From the IMG/VR virus record IMGVR_UViG_3300011952_000021: a stretch of DNA of 7,256 nt. The stretch is one strand, 5' to 3'. The first letter of the stretch is position 1. The number at the start of each line of letters is the position of its first letter. The notes beneath the pieces were generated by a model, which was given only the letters and a program-made list of their open reading frames with translations, searched no databases and was not told the origin of the DNA. The DNA comes from a virus (lineage: Duplodnaviria; Heunggongvirae; Uroviricota; Caudoviricetes). Of the stretch, positions 1 through 5,518 are shown in pieces. Both the position numbers and the translations under genes were made by a program.

Positions 1-180
1 ATATTCGTCATAAACTTTGGGATCATACTGAAGCTCCCCGCCAGATGCCTCCTGTAGACGCATCGCGCGACCTTCAGGAACCAGTATCCCCCAAGCAGCA
101 ACACTTGCCAGTCTCACTCCTGCGGCATTGGCAAGCTTTGTTTTGCTGCCAAAAAAAGTAATTGCGTCAACTTTAAGCAT
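1..180 (-). CDS. dicC: Cro/DicC-like small HTH regulator, N-terminal 60 codons only; ORF runs off the window start
   Basis: Reverse complement of 1-180 is stop-free from an ATG (complement of 178-180): MLKVDAITFFGSKTKLANAAGVRLASVAAWGILVPEGRAMRLQEASGGELQYDPKVYDEY. It has an HTH-like core (SKTKLANAAGVRLASVAAW) and an SD AGAGGGGG (complement of 186-193) 5 nt before the ATG. It is divergent from the DicA-family repressor, as dicC is from dicA. Absent from the ORF track only because it is truncated by the window edge. Confidence 0.6.
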   Translation of the reverse strand, partial: MLKVDAITFFGSKTKLANAAGVRLASVAAWGILVPEGRAMRLQEASGGELQYDPKVYDEY

Positions 181-193
181 CAAAGCCCCCTCT

Positions 194-211
194 TGTTAGA
201 CTTTTCTAACA
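194..211. promoter_or_regulatory. Operator-like palindrome O1 (TGTTAGA-CTTT-TCTAACA) in the divergent promoter region between the dicC-like and dicA-like genes
   Basis: Perfect 7-bp inverted repeat with 4-bp spacer, read directly. The same half-sites recur at 704-723 and, degenerate, at 741-758. Its position between two divergent HTH regulator genes is typical of an immunity-region operator. Confidence 0.5.
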
Positions 212-260
212 TTATTGTGCGCGGGATACCTAAGTCAAGAAAAATTAGAATTACCTAACT

Positions 261-668
261 ATGGATACAAGAACCCTAGGCCAGCGAGTTCTGGCGCGAC
301 GAAAAGAATTACGCTTAACACAACGAGAAGCTGCGCGCCTCGCTGGAGTTGCTCACGTCACAATTTCACAATGGGAAAGAGACGAAACCCAGCCAGTCGG
401 AAAACGATTGTTTGCTTTAGCGGATGCTCTGAAGTGCTCACCTACATGGCTAATGTTTGGTGACGAAGACAAGGCACCAGTGCCTGCACAAGAACTTCAT
501 GTGGAAACAGAGCTAACTCCCAACCACAAAGAATTGATCGAATTATTCGATGCTCTTCCATCTTCCGAGCAGGAAGCCTTGCTGTCTGAAATGCGCGCAA
601 GAGTAGAAAACTTCAACAAACTCTTCGAAGAAATGCTTAAAGCGCGTAAAAATAAATCAATAAAATAA
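261..668 (+). CDS. dicA: DicA-family (XRE/cI-type HTH) prophage repressor, 135 aa
   Basis: ORF track 261..668. N-terminal HTH_XRE signature (LTQREAARLAGVAHVTISQWERDETQP). The segments KRLFALADALKCSPTWLMFGDEDK and LIELFDALPSSEQEALLSEMRARVENFNKLFEEMLKARK closely resemble E. coli DicA as I recall it, which is also 135 aa; I judge this a diverged paralog, not an identical copy. No SD precedes the ATG; a -10-like TAGAAT sits at 246-251, so the mRNA may be leaderless. Confidence 0.85.
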   Translation: MDTRTLGQRVLARRKELRLTQREAARLAGVAHVTISQWERDETQPVGKRLFALADALKCSPTWLMFGDEDKAPVPAQELHVETELTPNHKELIELFDALPSSEQEALLSEMRARVENFNKLFEEMLKARKNKSIK

Positions 669-703
669 CATTCTTTTCAAGTGATTAGTTGCGCCCACTC
701 TTT

Positions 704-723
704 TTGTTAGATCAATCTAACAA
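704..723. promoter_or_regulatory. Operator-like palindrome O2 (TTGTTAGA-TCAA-TCTAACAA) downstream of the repressor gene, upstream of the small-gene operon
   Basis: Perfect 8-bp inverted repeat with 4-bp spacer; same half-site as O1 at 194-211. Confidence 0.5.
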
Positions 724-730
724 AAAACAC

Positions 731-759
731 TTGCCTCTCGTGTTAGGTTATTCTAAATT
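731..759 (+). promoter_or_regulatory. Candidate sigma70 promoter for the downstream operon (-35 TTGCCT 731-736, 17-bp spacer, -10 TAAATT 754-759), overlapped by degenerate operator O3 (741-758)
   Basis: Hexamers match consensus 4/6 each with 17-bp spacing. O3 (TGTTAGG-TTAT-TCTAAAT) lies in the spacer and -10, the arrangement expected for a repressible promoter. Weak motif evidence only. Confidence 0.3.
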
Positions 760-836
760 ACTTTCCATCAAGACACCGCACGGTGTTCTCAGCAAACAGT
801 TCCGCGACCCCGGCGTTAAGGGGAAATGAGGTCAGC

Positions 837-992
837 ATGGATACTATCGATCTTGGCAACAGCGAATCTCTGGTATGTGGCGTGTTCCCCAACCAGGACG
901 GTACGTTCACCGCGATGACATATACCAAAAGCAAAACGTTTAAAACCGAAAATGGTGCCCGTCGCTGGCTGGAAAGAAACTCAGGTGAGTGA
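837..992 (+). CDS. ydfA: Small prophage protein, 51 aa, YdfA/YdaF-like (DUF-type hypothetical)
   Basis: ATG at 837 with SD GAGGT at 828-832. Product MDTIDLGNSESLVCGVFPNQDGTFTAMTYTKSKTFKTENGARRWLERNSGE is exactly 51 aa, the length of Qin YdfA, and sits first after the dicA-like gene as ydfA does. The track ORF 783..992 is the same frame with an upstream start that lacks an SD. Confidence 0.6.
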   Translation: MDTIDLGNSESLVCGVFPNQDGTFTAMTYTKSKTFKTENGARRWLERNSGE

Positions 993-1828: not shown

Positions 1829-1886
1829 TTTCTGGTGACGTTTAGCGGTATCAGTTTTACTCCGTGACTGCTCTGCCGCCGTTTTT
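1829..1886 (+). ncRNA. dicF: DicF-like antisense sRNA (ftsZ translation inhibitor) with 3' hairpin and U-tract
   Basis: TTTCTGGTGACGTTTAGCGGTATCAGTTTTACTCCGTGACTGCTCTGCCGCCGTTTTT matches the 53-nt E. coli DicF sequence as I recall it, with 1-2 substitutions. It ends in a GC-rich stem plus TTTTT (1882-1886) and lies inside the operon downstream of the ydfA/ydfB-like genes, as dicF does in Qin. Confidence 0.75.
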
Positions 1887-2060
1887 AAAGTGAATTTTGT
1901 GATGCGGTGAATGCGGCTGAGCGCACGCGGAACAGTTAAAACCAAAAACAGTGTTATGGGTGGATTCTCTGTATCCGACGTTAATTGTTAACTGGTTAAC
2001 GTCACCTGGAGGCACCAGGCACCGCATCAACAAAGTTCATTTGTAAAAATGGAGATAATT

Positions 2061-2282
2061 ATGATTGCACATCACTTCGGAACTGATGAAATACCACGTC
2101 AGTGTGTGACTCCTGGCGATTATGTTCTTCATGAAGGCCGGACATATATTGCCTCGGCAAACAATATTAAAAAGCGAAAACTATATATTCGTAACCTGAC
2201 CACAAAAACATGCATTACTGACCGCATGATTAAAGTCTTCCTCGGTCGTGATGGTTTACCTGTAAAGGCGGAGTCATGGTGA
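2061..2282 (+). CDS. kilR: KilR-like small protein, 73 aa (putative FtsZ/cell-division inhibitor)
   Basis: ATG 2061 with SD GGAGA at 2051-2055 (track ORF 2049..2282, same frame). The 73-aa length and the position immediately upstream of the ydaE-like, racC-like and recE-like genes reproduce the Rac order kilR-ydaE-racC-recE. Identification rests on synteny and length, not verified by alignment. Confidence 0.6.
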
Positions 2283-2903: not shown

Positions 2904-5518
2904 ATGAGCACAAAACCACTCTTCCTGTTACGGAAAGCGAAAAAATCATCCGGTGAACCTGACGTCGTCCTGTGGGCAAGTGACGATTTTGAATCGACCT
3001 GTGCCACTCTGGACTACCTGATCGTTAAGTCAGGTAAAAAACTGAGCAGCTATTTTAAAGCTGTTGCCACGAATTTTCCTGTCGTTAATGACCTGCCCGC
3101 TGAAGGTGAGATCGATTTTACCTGGAGTGAACGCTATCAACTCAGCAAAGACTCCATGACATGGGAACTAAAACCGGGAGCAGCACCAGACAACGCTCAC
3201 TATCAAGGCAATACCAACGTCAACGGCGAAGACATGACTGAGATTGAGGAGAATATGCTACTCCCAATTTCTGGCCAGGAACTGCCCATTCGTTGGCTTG
3301 CTCAACACGGCAGCGAAAAACCGGTAACGCACGTTTCACGCGACGGACTCCAGGCATTACACATTGCTCGGGCTGAAGAACTACCGGCTGTTACTGCCCT
3401 GGCTGTTTCCCACAAAACCAGCCTGCTCGACCCGCTGGAAATTCGCGAACTCCACAAACTNNNNNNNNNNGGTTCGTGACACTGACAAAGTTTTCCCTAA
3501 TCCTGGTAATTCAAACCTGGGACTGATAACTGCTTTTTTCGAAGCATACCTGAACGCTGACTACACCGATCGAGGACTGCTGACAAAAGAGTGGATGAAG
3601 GGTAATCGTGTTTCACACATCACTCGCACGGCTTCCGGTGCTAATGCTGGCGGCGGAAACCTCACCGATCGCGGCGAAAGTTTCGTACACGATCTGACGT
3701 CACTGGCGCGCGACGTAGCCACTGGCGTACTGGCCCGTTCAATGGACGTGGACATCTATAACCTTCATCCGGCACACGCTAAACGCATTGAGGAAATTAT
3801 CGCTGAAAATAAACCGCCCTTTTCTGTTTTCCGCGACAAATTCATCACCATGCCTGGCGGGCTGGATTATTCCCGCGCCATCGTGGTTGCGTCCGTAAAA
3901 GAAGCACCAATTGGGATCGAGGTCATCCCCGCGCACGTCACTGAATATCTGAACAAAGTACTGACTGAAACCGATCATGCCAACCCTGATCCGGAAATCG
4001 TGGATATTGCCTGCGGTCGCTCCTCTGCCCCGATGCCGCAGCGAGTAACAGAAGAAGGAAAACAGGATGATGAAGAAAAACCGCAACCATCTGGAACAAC
4101 GGCAGTTGAACAGGGAGAGGCTGAAACAATGGAACCGGACGCAACTGAACATCATCAGGACACGCAGCCGCTGGATGCTCAGTCACAGGTAAATTCTGTT
4201 GATGCGAAATATCAGGAACTGCGGGCAGAACTCCATGAAGCCCGGAAAAACATTCCATCAAAAAATCCTGTCGATGCCGATAAATTGCTTGCTGCATCAC
4301 GTGGTGAATTTGTTGACGGAATTAGCGACCCGAACGATCCGAAATGGGTGAAGGGGATTGAAACCCGCGATTCAGTGAACCAGAACCAGCAAGAAACGGA
4401 ACAGAACGACCAGAAAGCGGAACAAAACAGCCCAAATGCGTTACAAAACGAGCCAGAAACGAAACAACCTGAGCCAGTAGCGCAACAGGAAGCGGAAAAA
4501 ATCTGCACCGCCTACGGTCAGACCGGCGGCGGCAACTGCCCTGAATGTGGTGCGNNNNNNNNNNCGGACCGATCCGAAATGGGTAAAGGGGATCCAGTCT
4601 CGCGATTGTGTGTACCAGAACCAGCCAGAAACGGAAAAAACCAGCCCAGATATGAATCAACCTGAGCCAGTAGTGCAACAGGAACCGGAAATAGCCTGCA
4701 ATGCCTGCGGCCAGACTGGCGGGGATAACTGCCCTGACTGTGGTGCGGTGATGGGCGACGCAACATACCAGGAAACATTCGCTGAAGAGAGTCAGGTTGA
4801 AGCTAAGGAAAATGATCCGGAGGAAATGGAAGGCGCTGAACATCCGCACAATGAGAATGCTGGCAGCGATCCGCATCGCGATTGCAGTGATGAAACTGGC
4901 GAAGTCGCAGATCCCGTAATCGTAGAAGACCTAGAGACAGTTATCACATCCACCAGCAGGACGTGTGACCATCTAATGATCGACCTTGAAACCATGGGAA
5001 AAAATCCTGATGCCCCGATTATCTCAATAGGCGCAATATTTTTCGATCCACAAACCGGAGATATGGGACCGGAATTTAGCAAGACCATAGATCTGAATAC
5101 TGCTGGCGGAGTCATTGATCGTGACGTCATTAAATGGTGGCTGAAGCAATCACGTGAAGCGCAGTCTGCCATTATGACCGATGAAATCCCGTTAGATGAT
5201 GCACTGTTACAATTGCGGGAATTTATCGACGAAAACTCCGGTGAATTTTTTGTTCAGGTCTGGGGAAATGGAGCCAACTTCGACAACACGATTTTGCGCC
5301 GTTCATACGAACGGCAGGGGATCCCCTGCCCGTGGCGTTACTACAACGATCGCGATGTACGCACAATCGTTGAGCTGGGGAAAGCCATAGACTTCGATGC
5401 CAGAACGGCTATTCCATTCGAAGGTGAGCGGCATAATGCACTTGATGACGCCCGTTACCAGGCAAAATACGTTTCAGTTATCTGGCAAAAACTGATCCCG
5501 AGTCAGGCTGATTCTTAA
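2904..5518 (+). CDS. recE: RecE-like (exodeoxyribonuclease VIII family N-terminal region) protein, about 868 aa, with a C-terminal DEDDh/DnaQ-like 3'-5' exonuclease domain; reading frame broken by two 10-N runs
   Basis: Track ORFs 2904..3479, 3364..4665 and 4547..5518 are consecutive pieces in frames 0, +1, +2, each switching exactly at an N run; with the N runs removed they join in frame (..ELHK-L-VRDTDK.. and ..CPECGA-RTDPKW..). The N-terminus [29 protein letters not shown].. matches E. coli RecE as I recall it. C-terminal domain motifs: Exo I MIDLETMG (~4981), Exo [13 protein letters not shown] (~5265), Exo [16 protein letters not shown] (~5433). SD GAGG sits about 10 nt upstream of ATG 2904. 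Confidence 0.85.
3461..3470. other. Run of 10 N (assembly/scaffold spacer) inside the recE-like CDS
   Basis: Literal n x10. Flanking codons are only in frame if the true gap length is a multiple of 3, including 0. Confidence 0.95.
4336..4747 (+). repeat. Two diverged tandem in-frame copies of a 59-73 aa unit ([30 protein letters not shown]) inside the recE-like CDS, separated by the second N run
   Basis: Copy 1 at 4336-4554 (73 aa), copy 2 at 4571-4747 (59 aa). Both begin GATCCGAAATGGGT.AAGGGGAT and end CCTGA.TGTGGTGCG. Each carries a C-x2-C ... C-P-x-C-G zinc-ribbon-like Cys pattern. Confidence 0.8.
4555..4564. other. Run of 10 N (assembly/scaffold spacer) at the junction of the two tandem repeat copies
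   Basis: Literal n x10. Frame is restored if the true gap is a multiple of 3. Its placement exactly between repeat copies suggests a repeat-induced assembly break. Confidence 0.95.

Follow-up and report, generated by a model that had tools for sequence, protein, structure and literature searches.

The question raised by this locus is whether three inverted repeats that surround a repressor gene are the operators of that repressor. The original prediction had gone further, with a single repressor controlling both a divergent cro-like promoter and the promoter of an operon for cell-division inhibitors. The window (the whole 7256-nucleotide stretch of DNA that was analysed) is the immunity region of an E. 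coli Qin/Rac-mosaic lambdoid prophage, and its switch is a variant copy of one already described in E. coli K-12. Judged from sequence comparison, the three repeats are very likely operators, bound by the DicA-like repressor whose gene they surround, within a lambdoid immunity cassette spanning approximately 80-760. The regulatory genes and sites are as follows.

1-180, minus strand: dicC-like cro gene, ATG at 180; N-terminal 60 codons, the gene being cut by the left end of the window
194-211: O1, TGTTAGA-CTTT-TCTAACA (TGTTAGACTTTTCTAACA); homologue of K-12 Oc, 7-bp arms without mismatch
243-260: fourth, degenerate site (AATTAGAATTACCTAACT); homologue of K-12 'Oa', putative regulatory role
261-668, plus strand: DicA-subfamily repressor, 135 aa; N-terminal helix-turn-helix and short helical C-terminal part
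701-726: O2, TTGTTAGA-TCAA-TCTAACAA at 704-723; core TGTTAGATCAATCTAACA at 705-722, inside a 26-bp palindrome
741-758: O3, TGTTAGG-TTAT-TCTAAAT (TGTTAGGTTATTCTAAAT); 3 of 14 positions mismatched against TGTTAGA-N4-TCTAACA

The repressor matches the model NF007257 'transcriptional repressor DicA' at 224.7 bits (cut-off 101) over residues 1-134 of 135, which bears out its predicted assignment to the DicA family, and it is 57% identical to K-12 DicA over 132 aa. The families matched, PF01381 among them, are helix-turn-helix families only, and the N-terminal domain is homologous over residues 1-71 to that of P22 C2 (1ADR, E 1.3e-18; 2R1J, E 3.6e-18). The family search found no Peptidase_S24 or autocleavage domain in the 135-aa protein; consequently, the repressor is not classed as C2-type, although its DNA-binding domain is C2-like. 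At a 100%-identical locus, RefSeq annotates it as WP_000381212.1, and the allele with its flanks is present in 557 of 5426 complete E. coli genomes (approximately 10%). The divergent gene is indeed cro-like: it matches PF14549 P22_Cro at 46.6 bits (cut-off 30.2) and NF007282 DicC at 129.2 bits (cut-off 130) with only 60 of its 75 residues inside the window. The complete gene is annotated at the identical locus L002, where RefSeq names it a Cro/CI family regulator, and a YdaT-family gene lies next after dicC in this prophage.

All three repeats are real and lie exactly where they had been predicted. O1 had been described as a perfect 18-bp palindrome; its arms are perfect, but its 4-bp centre, CTTT, is not self-complementary, so that the site is palindromic in its arms only. 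O2, predicted as a perfect 20-bp copy, is longer still, with 12-nt arms (701-712 and 715-726) that are 100% complementary in the inverted-repeat search. Against TTGTTAG-N6-CTAACAA, O2 matches 14 of the 14 specified bases and O1 (193-212) matches 13, while O1 matches the 18-bp core TGTTAG-N6-CTAACA at all 12. O3 is degenerate, as predicted, with 2 of 12 mismatches to this core. The centres of O2 and O3 (713.5 and 749.5) are 36 bp apart, in agreement with the predicted value of about 36 bp. This spacing corresponds to approximately 3.4 helical turns, a geometry not obvious for face-to-face cooperativity.

The operator family itself stands, but its proposed consensus, TGTTAGA-N4-TCTAACA, requires correction: the core conserved among relatives is TGTTAG-N6-CTAACA, in which position 7 shows a purine preference rather than an invariant A, and a fourth, weak site at 243-260 had been missed. 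This fourth site is 89% complementary to O3 and adjoins the repressor start codon, and its counterpart directly before the ATG is kept in every allele class. It contains TAGAAT at 246-251, a possible -10 element for a near-leaderless repressor mRNA. Besides it, no further operator is recognisable in the window at either promoter: the 80-bp dicC-dicA spacer holds one strong site (O1), one weak site (243-260) and no third, and no site like K-12 'Om' is recognisable in the window. Annotated phage records list no operators for this allele.

At up to three mismatches, the motif occurs three times in the 7256 bp, compared with an expectation of 0.26, and three occurrences were reached in 0 of 200 dinucleotide shuffles. 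As a background, 421 kb of related prophage DNA outside the immunity regions contained 0.024 sites per kb with no more than 2 of 12 mismatches. At this rate, the two intergenic regions together should contain approximately 0.006 sites; three are seen. Chance is thus excluded as the source of the sites in the window.

The position of the sites relative to the promoters is the next point to consider.

211-238, minus strand: predicted dicC promoter, -35 TTGACT (238-233), -10 AATAAT (216-211), 16-nt spacer
731-759, plus strand: predicted dicBp-type promoter, -35 TTGCCT (731-736), 17-nt spacer, -10 TAAATT (754-759)
762-836, plus strand: conserved operon leader, with the inverted repeat ACACCG-CA-CGGTGT at 773-786

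The predicted dicC promoter is the sole sigma-70-like match in 1-1100 in a consensus scan (score 10 of 12), and each of the four E. coli alleles compared keeps its AGTCAA block. O1 adjoins the -10 of this promoter, covers approximately +1 and is separated by 13 bp from the dicC ATG, which agrees with its predicted place at a divergent cro-like promoter. The dicBp-type promoter scored too low to pass the consensus scan and was assigned by its position and by its homology to other alleles and to K-12 TTGACC-17-TAATCT. This predicted homologue of K-12 dicBp has its -35 between O2 and O3, which also overlap its -10, and the expected overlap with a promoter of the downstream operon is thereby given a specific form: the 26-bp palindrome of O2 stops 5 bp upstream of the -35, and O3 lies within the spacer, its degenerate right arm CTAAAT overlapping the -10 hexamer. 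The leader at 762-836 is the first block common to all E. coli immunity alleles, and from approximately 761 on the identity to three other E. coli alleles is 92-100%. We infer these promoter assignments, as well as the competition mechanism of autoactivation described below.

The same arrangement is found in related loci. Among the matches listed, 42 viral-contig loci encode repressors with 48-100% identity; they were gathered by exact match to one operator, so in each of them only the remaining sites count as independent evidence. Five further genome loci, from E. ruysiae, E. albertii, Citrobacter and Buttiauxella, were selected by protein. A common layout is kept in at least 47 related loci of six genera (viral contigs and genomes), although the distinct site sequences compared here lack phylogenetic independence. 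The dicC promoter carries one perfect site, as seen in all loci whose repressor has TQR where helix 2 begins; a pair of sites separated by 33-37 bp brackets the downstream -35; and the right arm of O3 serves also as the -10. This arm reads CTAAxx in 24 of 24 distinct homologues among the matches listed (mostly CTAAAT or CTAATC), and a T follows in all 24, which argues that the arm overlaps the -10. The O2 homologue is kept at +36 to +48 past the stop codon. Where prophages share an identical repressor, their operator arms do not vary, but their centres and spacers do so freely. The distance between the O1 and O2 centres is 511 bp in both the window and K-12 and, by a rough reckoning, approximately 496-519 bp in other loci; a looping constraint is therefore not claimed.

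When the repressor changes, the operators change with it. In the same slot, an allele with SQA...VAHVTISQWE is accompanied by the half-site CCTTAG-N6-CTAAGG at the same three positions, and an allele with SQN...SGSSISLWES by ATTGAG-N4-CTCAAT, also at the same three positions; neither motif was found in the window. Where helix 2 begins, the identity of the residue behind the conserved Gln goes with that of the two outer operator bases (TQR with TG, SQA with CC), and the recognition-helix variant tracks positions 7/12, with AHVTI accompanying purine/pyrimidine and SHVSV accompanying pyrimidine/purine in 27 of 27 distinct K-12-class sites. This covariation of half-sites with helix-turn-helix residues ties the sites to the repressor. 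In addition, all sites lie inside the variable cassette, whose bounds at approximately 80 and 760 indicate co-inheritance.

The DicA/DicC switch of the K-12 Qin prophage was described by Bejar et al. (1986/1988, as cited in PMC10448788) and treated by Yun et al. (2012, PMC3441716) and Ragunathan et al. (2023, PMC10448788); the operator names used here follow later papers than Bejar et al. 1986. In K-12, Oc (TTGTTAGTCATAACTAACAA, TTGTTAG-N6-CTAACAA) is bound by DicA in vivo, one A-to-C change abolishes the binding, Oc mutations relieve titration, and Oa shows no DicA binding in vivo (PMC3441716). Both dicC and dicBp are repressed by DicA (PMC3441716, PMC10448788), deletion of dicA derepresses dicBp 22-fold (PMC10448788), and transcription of dicA needs DicA, according to the work of others. 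A third operator has been stated at the promoters, and the DicA sites at K-12 dicBp were assigned by sequence; Reg-Seq (2020) lists the DicA site for dicB as low-evidence, location unknown (PMC7567609). The comparative footprint obtained here gives a predicted location for DicA-type action at a dicB-type promoter.

The window resembles K-12 in the gene order (dicC, dicA, ydfA-ydfB-dicF), in the 135-aa repressor of the DicA subfamily, in the half-site TTGTTAG with its 6-bp gap, and in the position of O1, which is that of Oc. A strong site lies at the dicC promoter in both (in K-12, perfect and 15 bp from the dicC ATG), and both have a weak 'Oa'-like site adjoining the repressor ATG. Paired sites flank the rightward -35, 35 bp apart in K-12 and 36 bp here, and O2 and O3 are positionally homologous to the K-12 sites 2210-2227 and 2245-2262 of locus L001. 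On the other hand, the recognition helix reads VAHVTISQWE here and ISHVSVSQWE in K-12 DicA; positions 7/12 are purine/pyrimidine here and pyrimidine/purine in the K-12 class; the centre is variable here and YATR there; and O2 is a perfect palindrome, whereas its K-12 counterpart is imperfect. Although it is only 57% identical to K-12 DicA, this allele, judged from homology and covariation, presumably binds and represses as DicA does in K-12.

The sites might instead be mainly targets of DicC, or be shared equally, with DicC binding explaining their conservation. Lambdoid CI and Cro use common operators, which fits such a view, and in the ATTGAG-type allele the DicC helix-turn-helix is changed too. 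PaaR2 and YdaS of CP-933P, encoded in the same genomic slot, protect overlapping DNA (PMC8630535), and in K-12 spontaneous dicBp switching needs DicC (PMC10448788). However, the DicC helix-turn-helix of locus L006 is identical to that of the window, yet the outer operator bases differ (TG in the window, CC in L006), a difference that tracks helix 2 of the repressor (TQR vs SQA) and not DicC. Moreover, dicA is required for Oc binding in K-12, where deletion of dicC has no effect on dicBp activity while DicA is present (PMC10448788). Shared use by DicC fits with operators of the DicA-like repressor, whereas exclusive use does not, and we regard a primary role for DicC as improbable.

It is more improbable still that the 26-bp palindrome at 701-726 is an RNA hairpin that terminates or stabilises the repressor mRNA at its 3' end, with only a secondary likeness to O1. 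The palindrome lies 33 nt past the repressor stop codon, and its RNA is predicted to fold into a 10-bp stem (-11.6 kcal/mol; z-score -3.07 vs shuffles), but this stem has only two G-C pairs, no U-tract follows it, and a terminator scan gave no match there. The homologous K-12 site (TGTTAGCTATAGCATACA) is an imperfect repeat incapable of forming a hairpin; relatives preserve the arm sequence itself, with no compensatory changes; and O1 and O3, at which a 3' end would not be expected, repeat the O2 sequence. The hairpin reading of O2 was rejected on the lack of a U-tract, its absence in K-12 and the conservation of the arms rather than of pairing alone. Least credible is the notion that the repeats are chance products of AT-rich DNA, or sites for a host nucleoid protein (H-NS/Cnu), unrelated to the repressor. 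Both intergenic regions are AT-rich, and the K-12 dicA promoter fragment is also shifted by another protein, H-NS/Cnu antagonising DicA there. Of 120 viral-contig matches listed as exact for the generic 20-mer, 77 are not beside a DicA-like gene, and the motif alone is therefore not diagnostic across huge databases; most of these unlinked matches, however, come from contigs with a G+C content of 28-41%, in which matches should arise by chance. Inside the window, the shuffles and the background rate rule out chance, and, with the host unchanged, a change of repressor allele is accompanied by a change of half-site.

With the repeats taken as operators of the DicA-like repressor, a mechanism may be proposed. 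A repressor dimer would occupy each 18-bp site through its P22-C2-like helix-turn-helix, reading TGTTAG with a purine preferred at position 7. On O1 (centre 202.5), the dimer would cover the start site and the -10 edge of the leftward dicC promoter and shut it off. Because the predicted dicC promoter faces and overlaps the weak promoter of the repressor, occupancy of O1 should also favour transcription of the repressor itself. At the rightward, PL-like promoter, a dimer on O3 (approximately -16.5) would fill the spacer and the -10, and a second dimer on O2 (approximately -52.5) would lie just upstream of the -35. Occupancy of both would silence ydfA, the ydfB-like gene, DicF, kilR, ydaE, racC, exonuclease, xis and int. 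DicC, acting on the same or overlapping sites, would make the switch bistable in the manner of CI/Cro. Control of both promoters by one repressor, as originally envisaged, is supported by homology and by K-12; yet DicC probably shares the operators with the repressor, which would make this a two-protein switch and not a single-repressor circuit.

The downstream operon contains the following features.

837-992, plus strand: ydfA (DUF1391), first gene of the operon; PF07151, 96.2 bits; RefSeq name
1830-1881, plus strand: DicF sRNA; Rfam RF00039, 64.8 bits (gathering score 48)
2049-2282, plus strand: kilR, Rac-type septation inhibitor; phrog_294 Kil, E 4.6e-37; RefSeq name
2276-2452, downstream of kilR: ydaE; RefSeq name
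2479-2802, downstream of ydaE: racC; RefSeq name

The operon encodes cell-division inhibitors, as predicted, and these are DicF and KilR. DicB was considered as the regulated inhibitor and rejected: there is no DicB family match, and the genes at this place are kilR, ydaE and racC, whose RefSeq names rest on 97.1% DNA identity. DicF, an antisense inhibitor of ftsZ translation, is the only Rfam match. The ydfB sequence is part of a fused 191-aa ORF, and exonuclease, xis and int also lie in the window, after kilR. Compared with K-12 ydfA-ydfB-ydfC-dicF-dicB-ydfD, the operon is a mosaic in which ydfA and DicF are present and kilR-ydaE-racC replace dicB and ydfD.

The analysis provides base-level predicted operator and promoter assignments for an allele that presumably controls two division inhibitors; its practical value is modest, and the known picture of lambdoid immunity is unchanged. 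The covariation table offers a ready design for specificity swaps and helps to predict which co-resident Qin-like prophages are homoimmune. The repressor of the window and K-12 DicA have the same 6-bp core and spacing, and cross-repression of division-inhibitor operons is therefore conceivable: in co-resident Qin-like prophages, the repressors might repress each other's operons. Alternatively, the two might be heteroimmune solely through position 7 and the centre. It could also be that the conserved 'Oa' site is the -10 of a leaderless repressor mRNA, and that the 'autoactivation' of DicA is relief of promoter competition and not contact with RNA polymerase. Taken jointly with these ideas of cross-talk and of leaderless, competing transcription, the proposal that a small modular code sets operator specificity in the syntenic cassette is tentative, possible rather than probable. 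If true, it would supply a compact recognition code and a mechanism for prophage cross-talk.

Other known systems share parts of this arrangement. Like P22 C2, the repressor has 18-bp, two-fold symmetric operators with an AT-rich, non-symmetric centre and a divergent partner of the P22_Cro family. Unlike C2 (216 aa), it has 135 aa and is without a C-terminal S24 peptidase or RecA-cleavable domain, the half-site sequence differs, and there is no array of three adjacent OR sites. In P22 C2 and 434 repressor, central uncontacted operator bases tune affinity; by analogy, it is plausible that the differing 4-bp spacers grade repressor affinity here, as had been suggested. Like lambda CI/Cro, the switch proposed here would have one repressor for a divergent cro promoter and a distant, leftward-type early promoter, self-stimulation and bistability. 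In lambda, however, OR and OL each comprise three adjacent operators, together with cooperative tetramers and looping between OL and OR; the window has a strong site and a weak one at its 'OR' and, at its 'OL', a pair separated by 36 bp. Induction in K-12 involves an antirepressor or instability, not RecA cleavage as in lambda (PMC10448788). PaaR2/YdaS/YdaT of CP-933P (E. coli O157:H7) are similar in having a repressor in the dicA slot, a divergent ydaS/ydaT-type operon and 18-bp palindromes at both the OR-like and the PL-like regions (PMC8630535). The repressor family of CP-933P is without sequence relation to the present one, its half-site is GTTTAGTAA, and four equally spaced palindromes and a toxin-antitoxin pair after the repressor are found only there. 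The paaR2 gene is leaderless (PMC8630535), which supports the leaderless reading of 246-261.

Three operator-like inverted repeats of the TGTTAGA-N4-TCTAACA family (O1, O2 and O3), together with a weaker copy absent from the original prediction, lie around the repressor gene (261-668).

194-211: O1, TGTTAGACTTTTCTAACA
243-260: weaker copy, AATTAGAATTACCTAACT, adjoining the repressor ATG
705-722: O2, TGTTAGATCAATCTAACA, within a 26-bp palindrome at 701-726
741-758: O3, TGTTAGGTTATTCTAAAT, 3 of 14 positions mismatched

The three sites stand where they had been predicted, and the centres of O2 and O3, expected to be about 36 bp apart, are separated by 36 bp. The description of perfect palindromes holds for the arms but not for the 4-bp centres, which are asymmetric. 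The operator finding is correct. With up to three mismatches allowed, the window holds three matches to the pattern where 0.26 would be expected, and none of 200 shuffles reached three. Outside immunity regions, related prophage sequence (421 kb) had a background of 0.024 sites per kb (at most 2 of 12 mismatches).

The window sites share their half-site and 6-bp gap with Oc, the 20-bp K-12 operator (TTGTTAGTCATAACTAACAA; PMC3441716). Oc is the in vivo target of K-12 DicA, and a single A-to-C change in one arm abolishes binding; in addition, clones of the region at high copy number are viable only if Oc is mutated, Oc and the -10 of the mapped dicC promoter overlap, and dicA transcription requires DicA (PMC3441716). 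The two other predicted K-12 sites, Om and Oa, showed no DicA binding (PMC3441716). DicA represses dicBp, the downstream operon promoter, 22-fold, and forms with DicC a bistable, CI/Cro-like pair (PMC10448788). The K-12 layout also matches that of the window: 15 bp separate a perfect site from the dicC ATG, a pair of imperfect sites spaced 35 bp apart surrounds the dicBp -35, and Oa immediately precedes the dicA ATG, just as 243-260 adjoins the repressor ATG. The window sites are a re-discovery, in a different allele, of the K-12 operator system described in 1986-88 and tested in 2012. A smaller addition is the base-level placement of operators at a dicB-type promoter, whose K-12 location was given as unknown in 2020 (PMC7567609).

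Two promoters were predicted next to these sites.

238-233 (-35, TTGACT) and 216-211 (-10, AATAAT), leftward: predicted dicC promoter, from a sigma-70-like scan
731-736 (TTGCCT), 17 nt, 754-759 (TAAATT): predicted downstream promoter, from alignment with K-12 and other alleles

The first is the sole sigma-70-like match within 1-1100, and it is directed leftward at dicC; given its -10, O1 begins at the last base of that element and spans the expected start site. The second aligns with TTGACC-17-TAATCT in K-12 and with TTGACG/TTGACC ... TAAATT in two other alleles. Its -35 follows the 18-bp core of O2 by 9 bp (5 bp from the 26-bp palindrome), and O3 fills its spacer. The right arm of O3 overlaps the -10 hexamer and reads CTAAxx followed by T in 24 of 24 distinct homologues (most commonly CTAAAT or CTAATC); this overlap accounts for the degeneracy of O3. 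A 10-nt direct repeat, AACACTTGCC, occurs exactly at 100-109 (within dicC) and at 726-735, where it overlaps the downstream -35; it is probably due to chance. The leader at 762-836, upstream of ydfA, shows 92-100% identity to its counterparts in the three further E. coli immunity alleles that were compared, starts exactly at the end of the variable cassette and contains an inverted repeat (ACACCG-CA-CGGTGT, 773-786). It could act in the processing, antitermination or stabilisation of the operon transcript.

Scanning viral contigs for exact matches to TTGTTAG-N6-CTAACAA gave at least 120 loci. Among the matches listed, 43 of 120 have a DicA-like gene within 700 bp, and the remainder are mostly low-G+C contigs, in which chance matches are expected. 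The same layout recurs, among the matches listed, in 42 loci whose repressors share 48-100% identity with that of the window: one perfect site centred 46-60 bp ahead of the repressor ATG, and two sites past the stop codon spaced 33-37 bp apart (35 bp, n=20; 36 bp, n=15). Since every viral locus was found via one of its own operators, only the other sites in each are independent evidence. A scan based on proteins, covering a single genome for each species and free of this selection bias, again gave the same three sites in E. ruysiae, E. albertii, two Citrobacter and Buttiauxella. Across prophages with identical repressors the arms are constant and the centres vary (O1: ACTTTT, ATTTTT, ATATTT, ACTTTA or ATATTC; O2: TCAA, CTAA or CCAA), so the conserved core is TGTTAG-N6-CTAACA.

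Other E. coli alleles occupy the same slot, with flanks (up to ~80 and from ~760 on) 92-100% identical to the window and an interior of just 30-87% identity per 40-nt bin. All four sites lie in this variable cassette. The operator half-sites differ with residues of the repressor, as seen on comparing window 194-758 with L003-L006, L028-L029, L062, L102 and L129-L134.

SQN...SGSSISLWES repressors (E. coli L003-L005): ATTGAG-N4-CTCAAT and derivatives at the same positions
SQA...VAHVTISQWE repressors (E. coli L006, Enterobacter, Pantoea, Erwinia): CCTTAG-N6-CTAAGG and derivatives at the same positions

Neither CCTTAG- nor ATTGAG-type motifs occur in the intergenic regions of the window. The outer operator bases are TG with TQR repressors and CC with SQA repressors (residues at the start of helix 2). 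Within the TGTTAG class, position 7/12 follows the recognition-helix variant: with VAHVTI, which the window repressor carries, purine/pyrimidine is preferred, and with ISHVSV, the K-12 class, 27 of 27 distinct sites are pyrimidine/purine and the centre is YATR. Operators that vary with the DNA-reading residues are the strongest computational evidence that the window repressor reads these sites. This specificity covariation, and the question of cross-immunity among co-resident Qin-like prophages, constitute the remaining novelty.

The same covariation, together with the site statistics, contradicts the explanation that the sites are chance matches or host-factor targets. O2 might instead be an RNA hairpin or terminator, and its predicted folding energy is -11.6 kcal/mol; this reading fails, however, because there is no U-tract, the K-12 homologue is unable to pair, and relatives keep the arm sequence rather than pairing alone. 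Use of the sites by DicC alone conflicts with both K-12 genetics and the TG/CC covariation. The repressor-operator interpretation first proposed is essentially right.

The window (7256 bp) is the left arm of an E. coli lambdoid prophage. Positions 1-1100 match a chromosomal locus beside rspB in strain WP2-W18-ESBL-08 at 100% identity, and of 5426 complete E. coli genomes 557 contain at least 80% of this segment.

ATG at 180, minus: dicC-like cro (P22_Cro family)
261-668: helix-turn-helix repressor, 135 aa
837-992: ydfA
994-1569, plus: ydfB fused into a 191-aa ORF (phrog_35040, a family without an assigned function, E 5e-141)
1830-1881: DicF sRNA (Rfam, 64.8 bits)
2049-2802: kilR, ydaE and racC, a Rac-type module
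after racC: exonuclease gene, broken by two N runs
after the exonuclease, last in the gene order: excisionase and integrase

The repressor passes the NCBI DicA subfamily model (224.7 bits; cut-off 101), is 57% identical to K-12 DicA and has an N-terminal domain homologous to that of P22 C2 (E 1.3e-18); a family search of the 135-aa protein found no peptidase domain. The kilR-ydaE-racC genes take the slot of dicB-ydfD in Qin-like prophages with the same immunity region, making the repressed operon a Qin/Rac mosaic whose division inhibitors are KilR and DicF.

A DicA-type immunity switch is the best-supported model. Repressor dimers at O1 would block the dicC promoter, and dimers at O2 and O3 would block the PL-like promoter of the operon for two inhibitors of FtsZ-dependent division, DicF and KilR. 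DicC probably uses the sites too. Its helix-turn-helix is the same in the window and L006, where the two outer operator bases differ; if it binds, we infer that it would read the inner TTAG...CTAA. The predicted -35s of the dicC and dicA promoters would be adjacent (233-238 and ~223-228), so repressor bound at O1 could, speculatively, raise its own transcription by removing the competing polymerase. By analogy with P22 C2 and 434 repressor, it is plausible that the spacers grade affinity; centres vary freely between prophages whose repressors are identical, which argues that any such effect is weakly constrained.

All allele classes, even those whose operators differ, have a counterpart of 243-260 at the conserved position. 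The window copy contains TAGAAT (246-251), 9 nt ahead of the repressor ATG, and no Shine-Dalgarno sequence precedes that ATG. As Oa is not bound by DicA and the CP-933P repressor of the same slot is leaderless (PMC8630535), 243-260 likely serves as the -10 of a promoter for a near-leaderless repressor mRNA, and possibly also as a DicC site or weak repressor site.

Repressor-allele copies with frameshifts or stops occur in E. coli ECMA0423 and two Shigella flexneri chromosomes (L135-L137). They keep part of the operator-like sites (a perfect O1 in L136; a perfect O2 plus O3 in L137) and look like decaying immunity regions. Antisense to 994-1569 lies a 106-aa hydrophobic ORF (1231-1551, minus) matching no family; the DNA of both is missing from the K-12 arrangement. 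The exonuclease region has two 10-base N runs (3461-3470 and 4555-4564), around which lie ORFs 3364-4665 and 4547-5518, and a protein module (…DPKWVKGI…QPEPV.QQE…C.ACGQTGG.NCP.CGA…) is found on either side of the second run, a pattern that suggests a duplicated segment or else sequence that was masked or scaffolded. Positions 4377-4467 hold 4.3 tandem copies of a 21-bp repeat.
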